Shown: positions 8,830 to 36,879 of the stretch, one piece after another
How the letters are laid out: every line of letters starts with the position of its first letter
Numbering within the stretch: position 1 is the first letter of the stretch
IMG/VR virus record: IMGVR_UViG_2718218361_000004
Source of the DNA: a virus
Taxonomy: Duplodnaviria > Heunggongvirae > Uroviricota > Caudoviricetes
Strand: one strand, 5' to 3'
DNA length: 38,014 bases
Notes under the pieces: model-generated
What the model was told of the DNA's origin: nothing
The model's database searches: none
Seen by the model: the letters and a program-made list of their open reading frames with translations, nothing else
Position numbers and translations under genes: made by a program

Positions 8830-10002
8830 TTACGCGCTGACCTGGCTGGCGAAATTCACCAGGTACTGATCGGTGATGCGCTGGCGCAGCATCAGATTTT
8901 CAAGTGGCGGCACTGGCGTGTAGTCATAGTCGATGGTGAGTTTTCCGGCTTTCAGCGTGTCTTTGTCGTTCACCGACTCATCCAGCCAGCAATCACCACC
9001 AATGAGATAGCCCTGACTGACCAGGCTGCGCATTTTGGCGCGGATACCTTCGATAATGTCGCGGGCCAGCGACGGGTTAAGCGGTTTATCCACCGCCCAC
9101 ATGTGTGCTTCTGCCATCGTGTCCATCAGCACCTGCGCCGTGCGGGTGTAGTTTTCGAAGGCAAAGAGCGGGTCATCACTCAGGCTGCGGGAACCCCAGA
9201 AGCGGAAACCGTCTTTACGCACAAGCGTGGTGACGTCGTTCTGGTTAAGCAGTCCCGCATCGGTTGCCGGGTCCTGCAGATCCCAGAACACATCAGCAGA
9301 AATTCCGGTGACACCGTTCACGCCCACGTTGGACAGGCTTTTGTGCCATCCGGTCTGCTCGTCAATTTTGGCGCGCAGACCAAGCGCACGGGCGGTGGCA
9401 TATGCCGTTGCTTCGGCATTCAGCACCGTGTCCCAGCCAGTAAAGTCGGGCCAGATCAGCATCCCTTCGCGCTGGCTGAAGTTTTCGCGGTAAGTGATCG
9501 CCTCCTGCACTGTCTTGCAGCCATACGCTGACAGGTAAGCAAACCCACGCAGGCTTTGCGCCACGCTCAGCAACTCAGTCGCAACGGCTTTGTTATCGTG
9601 ACCAGGTACGCCGAGAATGCGCGGTTTAACGCCGAGCTGTGTCTGGGCAGATAACAGGGCTTTCATGCCTGTTTTTTTACCTTCAGCAGTCACTGCGCCG
9701 ATGATATTGGTCGTGGTTTCTTCTTCCGTTTCCCCCTGCGGCACACGCACAACAACGGTCACGGGTTTTGCCTGGTCAGCGATGGCATCCAGCGAACGGG
9801 CCAGCGTGCCGGACTCACCCGCTTTACCGCTGGCAGTCAGCACATCAGTGATCAGCACGGGTTTATTAAGAGGAAACATTTTTGCATCGGCATCATCGCC
9901 CGTGCAGACCATACCCACGATGGCGGTGCTCACCGTGGTAATGGATCGGGTGCCTTCGTTGACTTCAACAACGCGCACCCCGTGGTGGTAATCCTGAGCC
10001 AT
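8830..10002 (-). CDS. contractile tail sheath protein gpFI
   Basis: 390-aa ORF at the head of the FI-FII-E-T-U-D operon. Confidence 0.88.
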
Positions 10003-10144: not shown

Positions 10145-10711
10145 TCAGGGGGATTCATTGCTCTTATTTGCCGGAAATTTTCTATAAATTGTGGAAACAC
10201 CCACATCAAAAATCAGTGCAATACGCTGTCTTGATTCTCCGGCCTCGAGTAAGCGTCCAATCTGTGCCCACTGTTCTGTGGTCAACTTAGGACGGCGTCC
10301 ACCTACTCTGCCTTTGGCGCGAGCTGCAGCCAGCCCCGCCCTGGTACGTTCAACTATCAGTTCGCGTTCCATTTCAGCCAGGGCACCCATGACATGAAAA
10401 AAGAAACGGCCCATTGGGGTGCTGGTATCAATACTGTCAGTCAGGCTTCGGAAATTCACACCACGCTGGCGCAACTCTTCTATCAGCGTAACAAGATGCC
10501 GCATACTGCGCCCCAACCTGTCCAGCTTCCAGACAACCAGCGTGTCTCCTGCCGTTAGTGTCCTGAGCAGTTTTTTCAGCCCTGGTCTGTCGGACTTTGT
10601 GCCACTGATTTTGTCCTCAAAAATCCGCTCACATCCCGCGCAGTTCAGTGCATTACGTTGCAAATCGGTGTTCTGGTCATTTGTTGACACGCGTACATAG
10701 CCAATAAGCAT
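10145..10711 (-). CDS. serine DNA invertase (Hin/Gin/Pin/Cin family)
   Basis: N-terminus MLIGYVRVSTNDQNTDLQRNAL with the catalytic Ser motif and a C-terminal HTH (GVSTIYRKF). ATG at 10711 preceded by GGGGG; directly abuts the invertible segment. Confidence 0.9.
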   Translation of the reverse strand: MLIGYVRVSTNDQNTDLQRNALNCAGCERIFEDKISGTKSDRPGLKKLLRTLTAGDTLVVWKLDRLGRSMRHLVTLIEELRQRGVNFRSLTDSIDTSTPMGRFFFHVMGALAEMERELIVERTRAGLAAARAKGRVGGRRPKLTTEQWAQIGRLLEAGESRQRIALIFDVGVSTIYRKFPANKSNESP

Positions 10712-10778
10712 GATCATCCCCCTGAATAAAAACCGGGGATGATGCCAGTTAGCCATTATCTCTGCATTTTCATAAACG

Positions 10779-10812
10779 TTGGTTTGGGAGAAGCGGCAAA
10801 ACGGAATGTAGG
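10779..10812. repeat. left inverted repeat with hix/gix-like recombination site
   Basis: 34-bp stretch ttggtttgggagaagcggcaaaacggaatgtagg is the exact reverse complement of 12326-12359; the adjacent cccAAACCAACGTTTat resembles a hix/gix half-site. Confidence 0.75.
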
Positions 10813-11152
10813 AACAGGGGAAAATCAGATACCGGACATGACCTCTTTTGCCAGTGGTGATGGATGGATGAAATTACCCAACGGGAAAATCCTGCAATAT
10901 GGTCGTGGTGCGATTACGCCGACATTATCGACGCAAACAATGAGAATTACATTCAGCATCCCTTTTCCTAAAGAAGTGGACTGCGCCATGCTTACCCATT
11001 CTGGTGATGGTGGTGCGCCTTTAGGCGCTGGACGGGGATTCGTGATGACTGCAGAAGGTCCAACACTAACCGGTTTTAATTCCGCTTACAGAACTGCATC
11101 AACCAGCTCCACAGTATCGATGAATTACAGTTGGTGGGCTGTTGGTGAGTAA
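10781..11152 (+). CDS. alternative tail-fibre C-terminal exon, silent in the present orientation
   Basis: Begins inside the inverted repeat in frame with [18 protein letters not shown], the same peptide found in gpH at its repeat. The upstream part of the track ORF (10739-10780) lies outside the segment and is probably not translated. Confidence 0.7.
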
Positions 11153-11172
11153 TTTTATTCAGGGTGATTTAT

Positions 11173-11616
11173 ATGAACGAATATGTTTATAGCGCAAGGC
11201 ATAATGCTTTTTTCCCTGTGGATATGATTGATAAATATAAATCAGAGGGATGGGATTTATCAGACGCAAAGGAAGTAAATCAAAATATTATCAGTGAATT
11301 TATGGCTGAACCGCCACAAGGAAAAATCCGTATTGCCGGAGATGATGGGCTGCCTGCGTGGGCAGATATTCCTCCACCCACGCATGAAGAGCTTATTGAA
11401 ATTACTGAATCAGAAAAACAGCTACTAATTAACCAGGCTAACGAATACATGAACAGTAAGCAATGGCCTGGCAAAGCAGCTATTGGTCGTCTGAAAGGTG
11501 AGGAACTGGCGCAATATAATTTGTGGCTGGATTACCTGGACGCACTGGAACTGGTGGATACCTCCAGTGCTCCAGATATTGAATGGCCTACACCTCCGGT
11601 AACTCAGGCCAGCTAA
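11173..11616 (+). CDS. tail-fibre assembly protein, alternative copy (Tfa')
   Basis: 147 aa from the ATG at 11173; C-terminal motif VDTSSAPDIEWPTPP shared with the convergent Tfa. Confidence 0.75.
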   Translation: MNEYVYSARHNAFFPVDMIDKYKSEGWDLSDAKEVNQNIISEFMAEPPQGKIRIAGDDGLPAWADIPPPTHEELIEITESEKQLLINQANEYMNSKQWPGKAAIGRLKGEELAQYNLWLDYLDALELVDTSSAPDIEWPTPPVTQAS

Positions 11617-11983
11617 TCTCAGGAGCCGTCGAAGTGTCGACGGCTTTTACTTCTTTTTTGTAGTCCATCCAGGCAGATAGTTTTTCTTTATCTGTACTGC
11701 TGATATCACCAAGCATTAATTCCACCCGCCAGTCAGCTGTGACATTATCGGCATGAGCAAGTAACTGCATTCGCTGATTTTCAGCACGTGCGACATAATC
11801 AATCGCCGGAGATTTCAGTACCGGTAAACCATTTTCATCTGACGTGATTAATTTACCCCCTTCCTGCTGTCCGGCAATTAATTCATTGTATAAGTCTGTA
11901 CTTATCTCAACAATGTCAGCAGGCATGTCGCTGTTTATACCATCAAAGAAAAAACCATTAGTCGATTTTGAGAAATAAATCAT
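11588..11983 (-). CDS. tail-fibre assembly protein (gpG-like Tfa), active orientation
   Basis: ATG at 11983 with an AGGT Shine-Dalgarno, 9 nt after the gpH stop; C-terminus VDTSTAPEISWPELP. Confidence 0.78.
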   Translation of the reverse strand: MIYFSKSTNGFFFDGINSDMPADIVEISTDLYNELIAGQQEGGKLITSDENGLPVLKSPAIDYVARAENQRMQLLAHADNVTADWRVELMLGDISSTDKEKLSAWMDYKKEVKAVDTSTAPEISWPELPEV

Positions 11984-14910: not shown

Positions 14911-15256
14911 TCTCTGCTCCTGTTGATACGGAAAGGGAAACAGGCACACCGTTATTACGCCGCCCGGTCAGCCCCACCACCATTGAACCGTCAAAATTGC
15001 TGTTAATGGTGATGGAATCCAGCGTCAGCCGTGGCTCCCAGCGACTCAGCGCCACATACACTGCCGACATGACCTGCAGGCGTAATGCCGGATTTTGTGG
15101 CTGGTCTATCAGTGCCGACAGCAGGGAACCATATTCCCGACGGGCAATGCGGCTACCCTGCGGCGTCAGCAAAATGTCCCGCACCGACTGGCGCAGATGG
15201 TCAATATCAGTAATGACTTTGCCGCTGGTATTGTTCATCCCGCTATAAAGCGTCAT
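14897..15256 (-). CDS. baseplate wedge protein gpW
   Basis: 119-aa ORF (P2 W is about 115 aa) between V and J. Confidence 0.85.
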   Translation of the reverse strand: MTLYSGMNNTSGKVITDIDHLRQSVRDILLTPQGSRIARREYGSLLSALIDQPQNPALRLQVMSAVYVALSRWEPRLTLDSITINSNFDGSMVVGLTGRRNNGVPVSLSVSTGAENGSD

Positions 15257-15831
15257 ACCGGGCCTCCGGTTGTATCGCCGCCTTTCAGGACGCCAGTATG
15301 CTGATGCGCATCAACCACGATCCCGTTAGAACTCATCGCTCCGCCGCCCTGGGTAACGCCACCATTGATCACCACTTCGCTGTTAATGCGCGTGCGGTCA
15401 GCCTCCAGTACAAACTCACTGGTTTTCATGGTGATGTTGTCAGCGGCCTCAATGACCATTGATTTGATGCCCCTGACATACCAGCGCCCGGTGGCGGGTT
15501 CGTATTCAAACCAGCCACCGTCAGGATGTTCTGTCACGCAGGCGTCCGCCGACGTCGACGGTGGTGCGAACTGATTCGAATAGATGGCGGGCAGCGCAAA
15601 CGCGGTTTCCAGATTGCCGCCCAGACTCAGCAGCACCACCTGCTCACCTTCCGATGGTTTCCACCATGTGCGGGCATCACCCGCGCGCAGCGTCAGCCAG
15701 TTAATCCAGTTGGTTTCAAGGTCGCCCGTTTTCACCCGACAAAGCCAGTTTTCCCGGTCCACTTCGGTGACTACACCTGTGCGGATCAGATTGGTGATAA
15801 GGCGCATGATTTCTGTGATTTGTGCGTTCAT
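15253..15831 (-). CDS. baseplate spike/assembly protein gpV
   Basis: Resembles P2 V from the ATG at 15831 (MNAQITEIMRLITNLIRTG); the track ORF starts at an upstream GTG at 15846. Confidence 0.82.
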   Translation of the reverse strand: MNAQITEIMRLITNLIRTGVVTEVDRENWLCRVKTGDLETNWINWLTLRAGDARTWWKPSEGEQVVLLSLGGNLETAFALPAIYSNQFAPPSTSADACVTEHPDGGWFEYEPATGRWYVRGIKSMVIEAADNITMKTSEFVLEADRTRINSEVVINGGVTQGGGAMSSNGIVVDAHQHTGVLKGGDTTGGPV

Positions 15832-15877: not shown

Positions 15878-15895
15878 TGTATTAATGATGATACA
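15878..15895. promoter_or_regulatory. TGT-N12-ACA dyad, candidate Ogr-dependent late promoter element (PV-like)
   Basis: TGTattaatgatgatACA centred about 55 bp upstream of the V ATG. Confidence 0.4.
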
Positions 15896-15954
15896 AAACT
15901 TCTGAAATTAAGTAGAAAGTACACAGTATTTTCACTGCGTACTTGCGAGAAAAA

Positions 15955-17007
15955 TCATTCAAAATTAATAATGTCGGAAAATATATCCTGCATTAAACAA
16001 GAAATATCAATAAGAGTTTTTTCCTTAATAGGATCAGAGATCTCCAAGGACTTTATCACGAACAATATTCGTTCAGCTGCTGGTAAATAGTGAGATGGAT
16101 CAGACGTTTCAATTGCCGAAAAAAATATAGCTATTCCAGCAATCGCAAGAATCATCAGAATACCTTCACCTTCACATATAATGGACGCAATCCTAATCCC
16201 CCATTTGTCAGCCTCCTTCTCAACCTCTGATTCAACTAAATCAGGCTGCTGATGATTCATCATGGCATGAGAATATTCATGAGCGGCTACGAATAACTCA
16301 CAGCCAAAGACCATATTATATATAATCTTTTGCCCTACAGGACAGAAGTTAATTATCGATGTATAAGCAAGTTCACCACGTACATTGTAATTCTTAAAAA
16401 AATCCCTCCATTCGTTTAAGTCAATCTTGCTTTGTAATAAAGCGCTTCTATTCTTCTCACTACTCAAATATTTTTCCCACTCTGACCGCCACTCTTTTTC
16501 ACTACTACCTTGCAGAAGAGTATTAGGATAACTGCTAACAAACAAACTAATTACACCATGAATAAATTGAAAAATCCCAGACTCAAAAATTGTGAAAACC
16601 TTTGACTTTCCGTCTAGGCATTTAACTGGCGCGGCAAGTGCACTAACTCTGCCGGTTGGAGCACAACAAAACCCACCATAGTTTTGGTGATCAAAAGGAA
16701 ATATCTTTGCTACTAATTCAACCTTACTCATCAAGCGAGATGCAATGCTATAACTCACACGATCATCATAGATTGTTGGAAGAGTAACTACACCTTGAAT
16801 ATTGTTTGATAACTCTTCAATACAATCAGAAGGTAAATTATCCATTTTATTACGCACATAAGAAAAACCCTCATCACTATTTAATGACTGAGCCAACTGA
16901 TCCTCTTTATATACCTGAGTGCCTAGACTATTCTTTATAATATACTCTTCAATATATCTTTCTAGTTTTTTATAATCATCATTATATTCAGACATTAATT
17001 TAATCAT
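15955..17007 (-). CDS. AT-rich cargo protein with C-terminal HExxH metallopeptidase-like motif (ImmA/IrrE-like pattern)
   Basis: 350-aa ORF in a visibly AT-rich island between V and S. Carries HEYSHAMMNH followed by E-x-E-K-E-A-D-K-W and a hydrophobic stretch ILMILAIAGIAIFF; the N-terminal ~250 aa are unrecognised. Confidence 0.6.
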   Translation of the reverse strand: MIKLMSEYNDDYKKLERYIEEYIIKNSLGTQVYKEDQLAQSLNSDEGFSYVRNKMDNLPSDCIEELSNNIQGVVTLPTIYDDRVSYSIASRLMSKVELVAKIFPFDHQNYGGFCCAPTGRVSALAAPVKCLDGKSKVFTIFESGIFQFIHGVISLFVSSYPNTLLQGSSEKEWRSEWEKYLSSEKNRSALLQSKIDLNEWRDFFKNYNVRGELAYTSIINFCPVGQKIIYNMVFGCELFVAAHEYSHAMMNHQQPDLVESEVEKEADKWGIRIASIICEGEGILMILAIAGIAIFFSAIETSDPSHYLPAAERILFVIKSLEISDPIKEKTLIDISCLMQDIFSDIINFE

Positions 17008-17008
17008 A

Positions 17009-17037
17009 CTGAAACCTCATCATTTATGAGGTTTCAG
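17009..17037 (-). promoter_or_regulatory. perfect 12-bp hairpin sequestering the Shine-Dalgarno of the HExxH cargo gene
   Basis: CTGAAACCTCAT / ATGAGGTTTCAG stems with a 5-nt loop; on the mRNA strand the GAGG Shine-Dalgarno lies in the 3' stem, which ends 1 nt before the ATG at 17007. Confidence 0.55.
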
Positions 17038-17136
17038 CATAATAAAAAACAAACTTAAAAACAAACTTTAATTCATCTCATTAGAATAACAAACAAAACC
17101 AACCAATCTAATATTTACAATATTTAAAACTTGAAG

Positions 17137-17592
17137 CTAAGGCAAATAGTCATCAAAAATCCTGAGCAACCCTTCTAGTATATTTTTGTTAATTTTCTTA
17201 TCGAACCCTAACAAACGACGCTCTACATAACTCACTACCGGTCCCTTACGGCTTACTCGATCACGAAGACCGTAATGATGTACCCGTGCAATCCGTTGAA
17301 CTTTCCCTTCAAACTGCACGCTGGCTGAATCCGCGCTGGCTGCAGTTTTCAGGTACTTCGCTGTACGCAATTTCGAAAACATCTGTCGCTTAATACGCCC
17401 CTTTTTAGTCCGTGCCGTGACTTTTCGCGGCTCGTAGCCGGTTCCATCAGGATTACGTTGCAGCCTGATGTTCTGCTGTTGTGTCCGACGCAGTTCTTGC
17501 GCCAGTTCGCGCATCATGCGCTGACGAGCAGCCGGCTCCAGATTCGCCAGCAGCACTGCCAGCCACTCATCCACTTTATGCAGATTATCCAC
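17137..17592 (-). CDS. tail completion / virion morphogenesis protein gpS
   Basis: 151-aa basic ORF at the P2 S position, overlapping R by 8 nt. Confidence 0.78.
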   Translation of the reverse strand: MDNLHKVDEWLAVLLANLEPAARQRMMRELAQELRRTQQQNIRLQRNPDGTGYEPRKVTARTKKGRIKRQMFSKLRTAKYLKTAASADSASVQFEGKVQRIARVHHYGLRDRVSRKGPVVSYVERRLLGFDKKINKNILEGLLRIFDDYLP

Positions 17593-25570: not shown

Positions 25571-26266
25571 TTAAAATTTAGCAAGCTCCATATAAGAAAT
25601 AGCATCATTAAAGACCGACACATGTTCTTCAGGAATTATTGCCGAGGCTCCACTAGTTAGTTCAAAGCTAAATTTAGAGTCATGATATAGCCCCCCAACT
25701 TTTATTTTATCGAGTTTAAAATCATTATCCAAAACAAATTTTTTCAAATCATTTAAAGCATCTCCACTAGAATTCAGCTCTAAACACGCCCTTGTTTTAT
25801 CAGTAACAGGAACATTTGAAACTTTCACCTTTGAGATGGCGAAGACTTTGACTCCAAACTCCTCCCTAATTATTTTCATAAAAGCCTTGAGATCTACCGT
25901 CAAGTTTCCATAGGCAACATTTACCCCTTCACCTTTTGACAAGAAATCAATAAAAGACTTAACTGTCTTCGGAGGATTATAAAAAGTCAACAAACATAAT
26001 TTATTACTTAATGTTTGGATAGAAAAACCAATCTGTTCAAAAACAATCCTTTCGAACTCTAAAATATCACCAAATGGATCAGAAACTGGCTCCAACATTA
26101 TAGTTTTTTTATTAAAAGTCGCAGATATTCCATTGTGAATAGTTTCAAACTTAGTAAAACCAGCACCAATAGCATCAGAATAAGGGGTGTTTTTGATAAA
26201 ATCAAAGATCGCTTCAGAACTGGTTCTGATCTTTAATCTCATCCACTTTAATCTTAACTGTGACAT
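25571..26266 (-). CDS. cargo operon gene C, hypothetical protein
   Basis: 231 aa from the ATG at 26266 with AAGGAG 5 nt upstream; AT-rich; no recognisable motif by eye. Confidence 0.7.
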   Translation of the reverse strand: MSQLRLKWMRLKIRTSSEAIFDFIKNTPYSDAIGAGFTKFETIHNGISATFNKKTIMLEPVSDPFGDILEFERIVFEQIGFSIQTLSNKLCLLTFYNPPKTVKSFIDFLSKGEGVNVAYGNLTVDLKAFMKIIREEFGVKVFAISKVKVSNVPVTDKTRACLELNSSGDALNDLKKFVLDNDFKLDKIKVGGLYHDSKFSFELTSGASAIIPEEHVSVFNDAISYMELAKF

Positions 26267-26285
26267 ATCCACTCCTTATGATGAA

Positions 26286-27350
26286 TTAGCTAATTTCCAT
26301 TATAATAGAATAAGCTCTATTTTCAATTAATTTATTAAATCTATCGGTTTCTCTAGCTGAAAGCTTTTGAGGTTTACTGAAATATTGACCGTTAGACTTA
26401 TATTTTTTCACTCCTTTTACTAAATATGAAAAATTAGTACAGTTTAGTGGATCTCCGAATTGAGCTTCGAGTTCATAAATATCTGGGTCTGCTAGTTTCT
26501 CTTTAACCTTCCATTTTATTTTCCAGATATAAAAGCCCCTATCATAAAGATCACTAAGTTCATCAGATTTAAGAACTCCCTCTCCTTTCAGAGATGCTTT
26601 TGACACATGAACTCCAGTTTCAGTATTTCCCTCTTCTGCTTCTATTGTTTCAGGTTTTGGATGATATACATAAGCATCCGTAACATCGTCTAATTCATAT
26701 CCATCTAGGCTACGGATTAATTTATCGAAAAACAGTGTCCTAACATCTGCGGAGCTATTATGAGCAAGAGTAATTTCGTTTAATTTTAAATCAAGATTAC
26801 TGTCATTATCTTGTTCACTCTGAATCGAAATTATATGCCCGAGGAGGAGATCTTCATAATCTTTGAGATTCTCGTTATCGGGACGACGGATGCTATAACC
26901 TTTATCAATAGGCTCGATTTCAATTAAAGCTTCTTTATTTACAGCCTGCTTAAAATCGCTTTTACTATAATTGGTCGATAGATATCTTATATCTATAAGA
27001 ACTCGAGAACCATCAATAATAATTTTACAATAATCATCCTGAGCAGTTATTTCTTTTTTTAACTTCTCTGCTGCCACTATGATATCGTCCTTAGTGACAC
27101 TGGATTCAATTCTTACACATGTATTTTTTTCAGCTCTTGTCTGACCTCCGAGTAATGTTGCTATCTTCTGATGTTCATAATAATCATGAGTCATCCGAGA
27201 GTAGTTTTTGGCTAGATCTTTTCTAGGGGTTTTTTTACAAATAATAGTACCTCTTTCCAAGAAAAGATCCTGTATTTCATTTAATGTAATCTGCTTTTGA
27301 TTCAAAGCATCACATAAAGCCTTGTCAGTTACACTATGAATATTTTTCAT
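26286..27350 (-). CDS. cargo operon gene B, hypothetical acidic protein
   Basis: 354 aa from the ATG at 27350 with a GGGAG Shine-Dalgarno; its ATG overlaps the stop of gene A (ATGA). Confidence 0.7.
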   Translation of the reverse strand: MKNIHSVTDKALCDALNQKQITLNEIQDLFLERGTIICKKTPRKDLAKNYSRMTHDYYEHQKIATLLGGQTRAEKNTCVRIESSVTKDDIIVAAEKLKKEITAQDDYCKIIIDGSRVLIDIRYLSTNYSKSDFKQAVNKEALIEIEPIDKGYSIRRPDNENLKDYEDLLLGHIISIQSEQDNDSNLDLKLNEITLAHNSSADVRTLFFDKLIRSLDGYELDDVTDAYVYHPKPETIEAEEGNTETGVHVSKASLKGEGVLKSDELSDLYDRGFYIWKIKWKVKEKLADPDIYELEAQFGDPLNCTNFSYLVKGVKKYKSNGQYFSKPQKLSARETDRFNKLIENRAYSIIMEIS

Positions 27351-28411
27351 TTCGGCTCCCAAGAAATAACCTCAGAAGAAAAGAATTCTTTTACAGTAGA
27401 GACAACTTTGACATCCAGATCTTCAAGTCTCTTTTTAGCCTCTTCATCCAGTCCATACTCATGAACATACTTTTCGATCCCACGCTGAAAATGCGACATA
27501 ACTCTATTATCTTTCTCACGATACGCCAATCTTATTCTAATTTTATTTATACCATCTAAAATTTGATAATTAGAAAGCAAGTCTAGCAAATAAAAGAATT
27601 CATTATCGCTATTACCTTTTCTATTGTAATATATAACAAATCCCTCTGGATAAACCATTTCCTCAATACCTTTAGCCCTATTGAATTTATAAACAGGACC
27701 ATGTTTAATAATCATAAATGGTGATAACAAAACTTCAATAGTTGCAGGAAGGTATTTTTCAGTTACAGCAACCTTATGGAAAATAAGTTGAGGATAATAG
27801 AATCCATAATCCTCATCTGGAAATTCTTTTTTTGCAATTAAGTCATTCATATCATTCGTTACTGCCAACATATAATTAATAAGAAATGGATCAATTATAT
27901 GAATTTGCTGACCAGCACATAACGGAATCTTTTCTAAGTTTACAGCCTTATCTCTCCTTCCTTTAGTAGGTTTAGGAGGATTAAAGAAATCATAAAAATC
28001 ATGTTGCAATTGATTATCATGATTAAAAACAAATAATAAACCTCGAACTTCGAAATCAATTTGAGAAAAGTTATATTTTTCTGACCATTCCTGGCTATAT
28101 CGAGCACAATCAATTGTTTTTGCTAAAGACTCTAATGCAGACTCTATCTTTGTTGCATTAATAGAACCAGCCTTATAACTTTTCAAATCAGTATTTAAAT
28201 AAATAATTTTATTTAAATATGGATCTTTATAACTAAATACCACATCCACTGGGTGTGTGTGCTTTTGTTTTTTACCTTCAGGCTTATGTTTTGTTTCATT
28301 ATCACAAGAGAAATCTTGGTCACAGGGGCCATGCTGTTGCCACTTAAAACGACTCATAAGATCGTTAGAAATGCGTTTTGCTAAGTCTTCAATAGGGCCA
28401 TTCTCTGCCAT
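27347..28411 (-). CDS. cargo operon gene A, hypothetical protein
   Basis: 354 aa with AAGGA Shine-Dalgarno. The N-terminal region has a possible PD-(D/E)xK-like arrangement (PVDVVF…NTDLKSYK), which is an inference only. Confidence 0.7.
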   Translation of the reverse strand: MAENGPIEDLAKRISNDLMSRFKWQQHGPCDQDFSCDNETKHKPEGKKQKHTHPVDVVFSYKDPYLNKIIYLNTDLKSYKAGSINATKIESALESLAKTIDCARYSQEWSEKYNFSQIDFEVRGLLFVFNHDNQLQHDFYDFFNPPKPTKGRRDKAVNLEKIPLCAGQQIHIIDPFLINYMLAVTNDMNDLIAKKEFPDEDYGFYYPQLIFHKVAVTEKYLPATIEVLLSPFMIIKHGPVYKFNRAKGIEEMVYPEGFVIYYNRKGNSDNEFFYLLDLLSNYQILDGINKIRIRLAYREKDNRVMSHFQRGIEKYVHEYGLDEEAKKRLEDLDVKVVSTVKEFFSSEVISWEPK

Positions 28412-28446
28412 TTCATTTCCTTACTTTTGCAGACAAATCTCATTGA

Positions 28447-28475
28447 AAGATAAAGGTAAGCTTTTTGGGTTGCAA
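28447..28475 (-). promoter_or_regulatory. candidate sigma70 promoter of the cargo operon
   Basis: On the minus strand TTGCAA (28470-28475), 17-nt spacer, TATCTT (28447-28452), about 30 nt upstream of the gene A Shine-Dalgarno. Confidence 0.4.
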
Positions 28476-28509
28476 GAACTTTGGACTTGATGTGAGAAGC
28501 TTAACGCGC

Positions 28510-28528
28510 GCTCGTATCCCCGCCACGC
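28510..28528. other. candidate cos (cohesive-end) site
   Basis: Minus strand reads GGCGTGGCGGGGATACGAG. The first 13 nt match my recollection of the 186/P2 cohesive end (GGCGTGGCGGGGAAAGCAT / GGCGAGGCGGGGAAAGCAC); it lies in a GC-rich block between the tum module and the cargo operon. From memory only. Confidence 0.4.
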
Positions 28529-28574
28529 CTGCCCGCTTTATGCAGTGGTTTTCATGCACCTGCATGATCTACGC

Positions 28575-28598
28575 AAAAGCCCGCCAGTTCTGGCGGGC
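28575..28598 (-). terminator. rho-independent terminator of the SOS (tum-like) operon
   Basis: GCCCGCCAG / CTGGCGGGC palindrome followed on the minus strand by TTTT, downstream of the DinI-like gene. Confidence 0.55.
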
Positions 28599-28733
28599 CT
28601 TAGCAAAAACGATCCTCAAACGATCATGCGATCTCATGCGGCATAGACATGCACTACAGAGCTAACGCCTCGCAAGGGCTCGTTGTTCAACCTTGCTGAC
28701 GCCAGAAGCAAGTTCAGACGCCAGCAACGTTTC

Positions 28734-35547: not shown

Positions 35548-36879
35548 ATGAATAATGATATGACTTTTGAAAACAGAGATGAGTATAATAGAAAAATCAT
35601 TGCTGAAAAAATAATAAGCTTACTCGAGTCCCCCTTAAAAATATCCCCTATTGTTATCGATGGGGACTGGGGTACCGGTAAAACCGAATTTTCAAAAAAA
35701 TTAGCGGCATTGATTGAAAAAAATGAATCTGGGCATAAAGTAGTATATATTGATGCATTTACTGAAGATCATAATGATGCTCCCATACTTACTATAATGG
35801 CTGCAATAGTTGCATTATATCCAGAGAGTGAAAAGAAGGAATTAATATCAAAGGCATTACCAGCATTGAGATTTGGACTTAAAACTGTACTCAAAGCTGG
35901 CGCTGGGTGGATTTTAAAACAAAATGCAGATGATATTGCGGATGAATTCGAAGATGCTATTAAAGATGCGGCTAACTCAGCTATAGATGGTACTGTAGAA
36001 GCACTGCTTGATGATCATATTGAAGCAAAGAAACATTTGCTTGCTCTCAAGGAAGTACTTGCTGAACTAACTAGCGAAAATAAAATAACAATTATCATTG
36101 ACGAACTTGACCGTTGTAAACCAAGCTTTGCCATCTCTATCATCGAAAATATAAAACATGTTTTTGACACTGAAAATCTTAACTTCTTGTTAGTTGCTAA
36201 CATCTCACAATTGAAAGCATCAATAAATCATATTTACGGTGCAGGTGTTGACTCAGAAAGATATCTTGATAAATTTATAAAATTCACTTACAGCCTGCCA
36301 GTGACTTTCACTGAAAACAATTACGATAAAATTTTGGCTTCGAACTCTCATTTTAGAATGCTATGTAACGAGTCTGAAAGACTAAAAGAAATTGGAGAAA
36401 GTAGTATTCATATAGTTCAAAAATTTATCGAACTAAAAGGCTTGTCGCTACGGGAAGTTGAAACCTTATCAAGATATCTAGAAATTTATCAAATTTTATC
36501 TCAAAATAAAATCAGCAATAAATTTATACCAGGCTATTGCTGTTATCGAACCCTTGCAGTAATTCTTTATTCGTTTGGTCGTGAACTGGCCCTTAACTAC
36601 GTAGAAGATAAAATAGATGCACAATTAATAATCAATTTCTTCGGTGTTAATAGACTCCCATATCAGACAGATCAATATAACAACAACATCTACTATTATG
36701 CATTATTTGGTATAACTTATAAATATATGCCAGAAGGTTCTCCTTTACTTCCTTCTGAAAACGATGAAAAAAACAGATGGGCTGAAATAAGTGATTATCA
36801 TATTTTAAAAGGAAATGCAGGTGTAGAAGACCCTGTTAGAATATTCAAAAACACCTTAAAAGTTTTCTTGCTCCAATGA
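35548..36879 (+). CDS. KAP-family P-loop NTPase
   Basis: Walker A GDWGTGKT and KAP-type Walker B IIIDELDRC; no obvious transmembrane insert; 11 nt after the small ORF; AT-rich. Confidence 0.8.
   Translation: MNNDMTFENRDEYNRKIIAEKIISLLESPLKISPIVIDGDWGTGKTEFSKKLAALIEKNESGHKVVYIDAFTEDHNDAPILTIMAAIVALYPESEKKELISKALPALRFGLKTVLKAGAGWILKQNADDIADEFEDAIKDAANSAIDGTVEALLDDHIEAKKHLLALKEVLAELTSENKITIIIDELDRCKPSFAISIIENIKHVFDTENLNFLLVANISQLKASINHIYGAGVDSERYLDKFIKFTYSLPVTFTENNYDKILASNSHFRMLCNESERLKEIGESSIHIVQKFIELKGLSLREVETLSRYLEIYQILSQNKISNKFIPGYCCYRTLAVILYSFGRELALNYVEDKIDAQLIINFFGVNRLPYQTDQYNNNIYYYALFGITYKYMPEGSPLLPSENDEKNRWAEISDYHILKGNAGVEDPVRIFKNTLKVFLLQ

Follow-up and report, generated by a model that had tools for sequence, protein, structure and literature searches.

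A cargo gene at the S/V junction of a P2-like prophage

The IMG/VR record IMGVR_UViG_2718218361_000004 (38,014 nucleotides (nt); 'the window' hereafter designates this whole stretch of DNA) corresponds to an Escherichia coli P2-like prophage integrated beside ybjL, 2.5 kb of which is 100% identical to strains S21 and H14, and within its late gene region it carries the gene considered here, which encodes a Lit-like zinc metallopeptidase of the M48 clan with a length of 350 amino acids. The open reading frame (ORF) starts with ATG and occupies positions 15955..17007 on the minus strand, on which all features of this locus described below are also found. It has a GC content of 35.0% and sits in an AT-rich island (0.34-0.37 GC over 16001-17000, versus 0.55-0.58 in the flanks), and in strains S21, H14 and A12 RefSeq labels it as a hypothetical protein. 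The upstream flank is the P2 S-like tail completion gene (17137..17592; PF05069 in orthologous loci), with which the O late operon ends, and the downstream flank is the P2 V-like baseplate spike gene (15253..15831; PF04717), the first gene of the V operon. The ORF, the GC profile and the two flanking genes all verify the first-pass annotation of this DNA, made from the sequence alone, which had described a gene of 350 residues in an AT-rich island at the V/S junction. For the V gene, a mechanical ORF list places the start at a GTG (15846), and RefSeq and the orthologs place it at an ATG (15831; MNAQITEIM...).

Comparison with an empty S/V junction, in which S and V are 68 nt apart, and with orthologous loci gives the order of the inserted module as S stop codon, AT-rich leader of 129 nt, ORF, terminator, TGT-N12-ACA dyad and V. 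Specifically, the leader (17008..17136) extends from the S stop codon to the cargo ATG and contains a TTATTATG(C/A)TG motif. Downstream of the ORF, folding identified an intrinsic terminator (15910..15944) with a 12-bp stem, a 4-nt loop and the tail UUCUACUU. A terminator is kept at this place in all lineages, with the same architecture in lineage L006 and with another stem sequence followed by U6 in L003, L032 and L033, which argues that the one at 15910-15944 is functional. Beyond it lies the TGT-N12-ACA dyad (15878..15895), read from the sequence as the putative Ogr/activator site of the P_V late promoter and as the backbone boundary of the cargo site; the dyad is also present at the empty junction (L019), and its P2 counterpart is annotated as an activator binding site. 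The gene was acquired horizontally and, with its leader and its own terminator, forms a self-contained cargo module located in the variable 'orf30' site, between the end of the O operon and the activator site of the V promoter.

The 'orf30 region' is one of three regions of P2-like phages that contain horizontally acquired genes (PMC3091744). Similar to the cargo gene of the window, P2 orf30 is inserted between S and the P_V activator site, is nonessential and AT-rich, and varies among phages. By contrast, P2 Orf30 is a 261-amino-acid protein encoded on the opposite strand, and in P2 (NC_001895) a rho-independent terminator (9397-9433) lies directly after S, ahead of this nonessential gene, whereas the window prophage has no terminator at that place. 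Kinship to P2 Orf30 itself was rejected, the two proteins being unrelated.

A single-chain gluzincin with a conserved active site

The motifs singled out by the first-pass annotation are all located in the translated ORF, namely HEYSHAMMNH (residues 243-252), the E-x-E-K-E-A-D-K-W segment (EVEKEADKW, residues 261-269) and a hydrophobic helix. The residues invariant among the 15 members of the family include H243, E244, H247, H252, E263, A266, D267, P309 and R313. An AlphaFold2 model computed from a 15-sequence alignment (predicted local distance difference test (pLDDT) score of 88, predicted template modelling score (pTM) of 0.89) presents, in order, N-terminal helices, three strands (residues 110-142), further helices, the HExxH helix (223-249), the 'Glu helix' (259-281), a hydrophobic helix (285-299), the helix of a P..R motif (310-320) and a C-terminal helix. 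The region around HExxH thus models as a metallopeptidase, with the active-site helix and Glu helix of a zincin/gluzincin fold.

The individual elements can be followed along the gene, and several of them align with Lit, the abortive-infection protease of the e14 element. The three β-strands of the zincin upper subdomain (16582..16680, assigned by DSSP on the model) carry the invariant columns GGFCC.PTG.V and FESG. The active-site helix, H243-E-Y-S-H247-x4-H252 (codons at 16252..16281), is invariant in 15 of 15 members and aligns with Lit H160-E161-x-x-H164-x4-H169, and the Glu helix, E263-K-E-A-D267 (codons at 16207..16221; E263, A266 and D267 invariant), aligns with Lit E181..A184-D185. Next comes a very hydrophobic helix (residues 283-299, GILMILAIAGIAIFFSA; 16111..16161), in which G291-I292 is invariant and A293 is found in at least 90% of members, aligned with the Lit helix around the invariant G209. 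The C-terminal P..R motif, HYLPAAERI (residues 306-314; 16066..16092), with its invariant P309 and R313, is common, as judged by hhalign, to Lit (THPAAYERI) and to M48-like relatives. H243 and H247 are the putative zinc ligands, E244 the putative catalytic base and E263 (ExxAD) the putative third zinc ligand. Overall, the protein is a single-chain gluzincin zinc metallopeptidase with an intact and strictly conserved active site (H243, E244, H247 and E263).

The order of elements in the model also bears on the N-terminal ~250 residues, which had been described at first pass as an unassignable, sensor-like domain fused to a protease: they form largely the upper subdomain of the peptidase itself, with no fused sensor domain. 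In the hydrophobic stretch (residues 281-300), the Kyte-Doolittle mean over 19 residues is 2.33, and the helix is modelled with a pLDDT of 95-98; it may be either buried in the core of the fold or involved in membrane association. According to Kao & Snyder 1988 (as relayed in PMC13228613), Lit is a membrane protein. Hydropathy of the query protein points to no evident signal peptide and no multi-pass membrane topology. Finally, the pairwise ratio of nonsynonymous to synonymous substitution rates is 0.09-0.17 against orthologs with 78%, 76% and 50% identity, and on this comparison of coding sequences the gene is under purifying selection.

A sister family to Lit

The kinship between the query family and Lit becomes visible only at the level of profiles. 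A phmmer search with Lit against all 159 collected relatives produced no match, and aligning the core family by hhalign to a Lit family of 71 members gave a probability of 92.2% (E 6e-7; query 191-321, Lit 104-246), rising to 94.6-96.2% once extended relatives were added. The alignment pairs H243, E244, H247, H252, E263, A266 and D267 with Lit H160, E161, H164, H169, E181, A184 and D185, and the motifs common to both families comprise HExxHxxxxH, E-x-E-A-D/ExxAD, a helix with a conserved Gly and P-A-x-x-R-I. In addition, the PADLOC model PDLC03011, named 'peptidase_U41', matches both the query (E 7e-8, residues 137-273) and K-12 Lit (1.5e-10), and weak precomputed matches to PF10463 occur on family members and relatives. 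The NCBIfam 'phage exclusion protein Lit' model matches the query with an E value of 0.0055 and 15.9 bits, relative to a cutoff of 274 bits.

Lit (PF10463 Peptidase_U49; NF007238) resembles the query protein further in being a standalone cargo gene of a prophage or mobile element, in presenting the same order of secondary structures (helices, three strands, helices) in separate models of the two proteins, and in having the same nearest solved structures (BepA, other M48 enzymes and M13). The two also differ: Lit has 297 amino acids versus 350 in the query, which has ~70 extra N-terminal residues and a helical insert; Lit is triggered by the T4 Gol peptide and cuts EF-Tu at G59-I60, and the query protein is encoded inside the late region of an intact P2-like prophage. 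In Lit-mediated abortive infection, EF-Tu is cleaved when bound to a phage capsid peptide (PMC3014915, PMC13228613).

The M48 and M13 enzymes among the structural neighbours (BepA/YfgC 6sar, M48 3c37, neprilysin 4cth and PepO) have the same arrangement of HExxH and Glu helix, but identity to these structures is 13-19%, and the query lacks tetratricopeptide repeats or other accessory domains and any evident secretion signal and is encoded by a mobile element. The Pfam M48 model (PF01435) matches neither the query nor the core family, and some extended relatives score 22-32 bits against a threshold of 20.3. The first-pass annotation had likened the C-terminal part to zinc peptidases of the ImmA/IrrE type, an assignment that found no support: the best match to M78 (PF06114) has an E value of 0.012, matches occur in 3 of 8 members, none of them the query, and all stay below the gathering score of 22 bits. 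The likeness consists of the HExxH ... E core and these sub-threshold matches, whereas the query is larger, does not adjoin a putative repressor in the window and has its fold neighbours in M13/M48 rather than IrrE; profile comparison favours Lit and M48-like enzymes. Because the curated thresholds of Lit, M48 and M78 are all failed, we place the query in a sister family to Lit, outside all three, the catalytic half of which is, on profile evidence, remotely homologous to e14 Lit and M48-like enzymes. This divergent family has the same fold and active-site architecture as Lit and represents no categorically new system.

A rare family that moves between cargo sites

The core family comprises 15 clusters at 90% identity among 5.8 billion proteins, and a hidden Markov model (HMM) scan of 1.84 billion representatives added 223 more distant clusters, mostly of 375-400 amino acids and aligning with query residues ~70-305. 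No tblastn match was obtained among 50,697 phage records and 72,556 plasmids, no relatives were found in the GTDB species genomes, sequence searches of the PDB with the protein and with the family profile returned nothing meaningful, and Foldseek gave no significant match among viral predicted structures. The gene is present in 5 of 5,426 complete E. coli genomes, and its flanks in 1,051.

Whether related prophages carry the gene at the same junction, a question raised at first pass, can be answered in the affirmative for all sampled homologs of at least 74% identity (94%, 78%, 76% and 74%), which are always found at the S/V junction. Beyond these, a homolog from Pantoea (50%) follows the cI repressor gene of a P2/186-like prophage at a distance of 58 nt, and of the four distant homologs (34-37%) located on longer contigs, three (P0010, P0011 and P0015) lie directly downstream of integrases in other islands, as lit adjoins intE in e14. 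This rare family moves between cargo sites of P2-like prophages and integrase-adjacent edges of islands.

The positions after cI and integrases bear on one alternative, in which the protein would be an anti-repressor protease of the ImmA/IrrE type that cleaves the repressor of a prophage or of an integrative and conjugative element and thereby causes induction. The Pantoea homolog, the helix-turn-helix genes near the integrase-adjacent homologs, the weak M78 matches and a match to phrog_87 metallo-protease (E 0.16) would fit such a role. It is nonetheless highly improbable: only the Pantoea homolog follows cI, all E. coli-type lineages place the gene in the late region (~18 kb from cI in the window prophage), the M78 threshold is missed, and the gene cannot be an induction switch as most P2-like prophages do without it. 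The query is also about twice the size of an ImmA-like Peptidase_M78 protein of 161 amino acids from the 'Peptidase + TM' system (pFR104) of Rousset et al., which we examined and rejected as a relative.

The cargo repertoire of the S/V junction

The S/V junction is mostly empty in the sampled prophages and, when filled, contains one unrelated gene of 219-384 amino acids. Ten alternative cargos (L020-L029) were collected, consisting of an FRG gene (PADLOC PDC-S15, 8.5e-32), a TIR gene (PDC-S66/SpbK-like), a DUF5677 gene and seven unannotated genes, and the junction may be an under-studied defence hotspot. Other hotspots of the window prophage carry 3HP (Hp1-3) and PDC-S20. A 2026 preprint describes defence hotspots within P2 late genes, together with a single Lit homolog in a P2-like prophage.

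A related cargo is found at a better known hotspot. In their Table S5B, Rousset et al. 2022 list 'Peptidase_U49' as single-gene cargo #137, with 16 loci in the P2 portal-to-A (Q-A) hotspot (PMC9122126). This protein of ~360 amino acids, also a cargo of P2-like prophages, belongs to the same extended superfamily as the query (extended-family HMM 1e-17; hhalign 96.8%) and contains the motifs GGF.C..P.GR, GHEYSH..LGH, ELAAD and THPEPMDR; it differs in its hotspot, and its direct alignment with the query is limited to the motifs. The cargo is absent from that paper's table of tested constructs (PMC9122126).

A hairpin over the start site in one clade

The start of the cargo gene is covered by a hairpin (17003..17043) with an 18-bp stem and a 5-nt loop, the 3' arm of which includes both the Shine-Dalgarno (SD) sequence GAGG (17015-17018) and the AUG (17005-17007). 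The first-pass annotation had reported a perfect 12-bp hairpin burying GAGG, and folding bore this out and revealed a stronger structure: the perfect 12-bp core (arms 17026-17037 and 17009-17020) extends to 18 bp with two G.U pairs, thereby also covering the AUG, which had gone unnoted. The minimum free energy (MFE) of the start region is -24.8 kcal/mol, versus -8.4 +/- 2.5 for dinucleotide shuffles (z -6.4), and 0 of 200 shuffles were as good; the hairpin is the longest inverted repeat in the window.

The structure is narrowly distributed. It is identical in A12 (98.5% DNA identity over a 2.5-kb region) and kept with one bulge (-21.2 kcal/mol) in an IMG/VR contig with a 94% identical protein (L031). 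It is absent from the lineages with 74-78% identity (z -0.7, -1.3 and +0.7 in L003, L004 and L006, respectively), in which the SD and start region are conserved but the complementary 5' arm is not, and folding is no better than that of shuffled sequences; RNAfold MFE values range from -8.5 to -15.2 kcal/mol across the L003, L004, L006, L032 and L033 leaders. This implies that the 5' arm is derived and that the hairpin is a clade-specific addition rather than a trait of the family. Two other identities were considered and rejected: a known RNA family, since an Rfam search returned only generic hairpin matches far below threshold, and a dispersed repeat or mobile palindrome, since the sequence occurs at one site in the window, in one IMG/VR contig with the same gene and in none of the GTDB genomes.

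A stem of such stability over both the SD and the AUG is expected to depress translation strongly, as structure at an initiation site does. The hairpin thus probably keeps production of the cargo protein low. Of the earlier proposal that translation is gated by RNA structure, the occlusion of the ribosome-binding site stands, with GAGG and AUG in the 3' arm, and the gating does not, as we found no evidence for a trigger that opens the hairpin; its stability would also be too high for a typical RNA thermometer.

Alternatively, the hairpin might chiefly serve the S (O operon) transcript, by terminating or stabilising it, instead of acting as a brake on translation. No other strong stem lies between S and the hairpin, which is located where P2 has its O-operon terminator, and a U-rich tract is present on its 5' side. 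On the 3' side, however, the tail UAUGAUUA has only 4 U in 8 nt, and a terminator scan made no call there, and the termination of S transcription suggested at first pass is unlikely on these grounds, the conserved stem and U-tract terminator being at 15910-15944. Moreover, the SD and AUG buried in the stem belong to a conserved and selected ORF, which would then be left with no transcript, and sister lineages without a stem at this place still keep the terminator after the cargo gene. We therefore regard this alternative as very unlikely.

Predicted transcription into the cargo gene

The leader (17008-17136) contains no canonical terminator, and the first one after S is that at 15910-15944, beyond the cargo gene. 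As nothing of the kind separates S from the ORF, the abundant late transcripts of the O operon are predicted to continue into the cargo gene, and it is for this reason that repression by the hairpin would matter.

In otherwise variable leaders, TTATTATG(C/A)TG is conserved in all lineages (the window, L003, L004, L006 and L031-L033). This motif could represent either a -10-like element, TATTAT (17039-17044), or the beginning of a mini-ORF (17020-17040; ATG CTG AAA CCT CAT AAA TGA), and it is partly complementary to CAUGAU at the start codon. If transcription began at 17031, within the 5' arm, the SD would still be paired in a weaker stem of 6 bp, with a total MFE of about -10 kcal/mol; that transcription starts inside the 5' arm, expected near 17032 if driven from TATTAT, is only an idea.

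A candidate abortive-infection protease

Considering the fold, the remote kinship to Lit and the genomic settings, we find the most plausible reading, with a probability of roughly 0.45, to be that the gene encodes by analogy a standalone Lit-like abortive-infection protease, carried as prophage cargo and kept low by the hairpin. This agrees with the abortive-infection effector put forward by the first-pass annotation; we infer the anti-phage role, together with its trigger, its target and the effect of the hairpin. In this mechanism, the lysogen would make a latent protease, cytoplasmic or membrane-associated, like Lit. Infection by an unrelated phage would then lead to cleavage of an essential host protein (EF-Tu bound to a phage capsid peptide in the case of Lit), and the resulting arrest of translation would abort the infection. 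Trigger and substrate specificities unlike those of Lit would come from the ~70 additional N-terminal residues together with the helical insert (residues ~170-222), and in the hairpin lineage the 18-bp stem over the SD and AUG would keep translation very low, plausibly so that late read-through transcripts do not yield a toxic enzyme.

A more ambitious version of the abortive-infection reading, which we consider doubtful, holds that this is a new Lit-sister family of single-gene abortive-infection systems with another phage cue and/or host target, that the S/V junction is a third, little-studied defence hotspot of P2-like phages, and that the hairpin is a translational insulator that spares the carrier phage its own weapon by keeping abundant late read-through transcripts of its lytic cycle from yielding the suicide protease.

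Several observations weigh against a defence role. The query matches no Pfam model even at E<=10, the PADLOC Lit model does not match it, and all curated Lit thresholds (PF10463, NF007238 and PADLOC Lit) are failed. Homology to Lit is confident for the catalytic half only, the N-terminal halves not being confidently alignable, and HExxH/ExxAD cores are common to many non-defence peptidases. The link between the family and defence is drawn from analogy and context, which makes defence a candidate function. The hairpin, limited to one clade, cannot be essential to the function of the family. In addition, eight of the ten alternative S/V cargos have no defence annotation, nine of the ten run opposite to the late genes whereas the query gene is co-oriented with them, and a promoter search in five lineages yielded only matches of 8-9 of 12 at non-conserved positions, with no convincing sigma-70 or lysogenic promoter.

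The last two of these points would fit a late-expressed protease that benefits the phage (by counter-defence, host takeover or exclusion of competitors), produced through O-operon read-through and acting on a protein of the host or of a rival phage. They are joined here by the missing terminator between S and the ORF, unlike in P2, and by the position of the module terminator after the ORF. Conversely, more than 99% of the prophages that share its flanks lack the gene, its relatives occur after cI, a position presumed to be lysogen-expressed, and after integrases in non-phage islands, and the structure of -24.8 kcal/mol over the SD and AUG disfavours efficient translation of late transcripts. 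On balance, a late phage-serving protease is unlikely.

The scarcity of defence annotations among the alternative cargos, the presence of BepA and other M48 enzymes among the best structural neighbours, and the very hydrophobic helix (Kyte-Doolittle 2.33) are also compatible with a lysogenic-conversion or host-physiology protease outside defence, acting either in membrane-protein quality control, like HtpX and BepA, or as a virulence or fitness factor. We find such a role quite unlikely, given that hydropathy suggests neither a signal peptide nor a multi-pass topology, that the very sparse and patchy distribution with switching between hotspots is typical of defence cargo, and that the closest sequence relative with a known function is Lit.

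Other variable regions of the prophage

The window contains further regions with cargo or variable genes. At 25571-28411 (minus strand), three co-oriented genes match PADLOC Hp3, Hp2 and Hp1 (E 1e-10, 1.5e-39 and 1.2e-64, respectively) and correspond to '3HP'; the AT-rich island that contains them, with the portal gene on one side and the replication region on the other, is the classical P2 defence hotspot. At the edge of this island, adjoining a DinI-like gene, RefSeq annotates a short pseudogene with an internal stop (28440-28637, minus strand), which cargo turnover may have left behind. Just downstream of cI (35548-36879, plus strand) lies a second AT-rich cargo site, in a region that holds a KAP NTPase (PDC-S20) and that is the equivalent of the position of the Pantoea homolog. 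Finally, at 10145-11983, a serine recombinase gene (10145-10711, minus strand) adjoins tail-fibre C-terminal and assembly genes in both orientations, and the arrangement resembles the invertible host-range segments of Mu (G) and P1 (C).

Implications

To our knowledge, Lit is among the founding examples of abortive infection and almost the sole characterised protease that acts as both sensor and effector. A divergent Lit-related family with other accessory surfaces would show how such proteases gain new triggers and targets. The S/V ('orf30') junction, which also receives FRG and TIR genes, may constitute a defence hotspot in addition to the well-studied one at portal-to-A, and the hairpin would be a simple, testable example of the way in which a prophage might block the translation of a toxic cargo embedded in its late operon. 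Rather than a discovery in itself, the gene is a reasonable candidate for defence screens.

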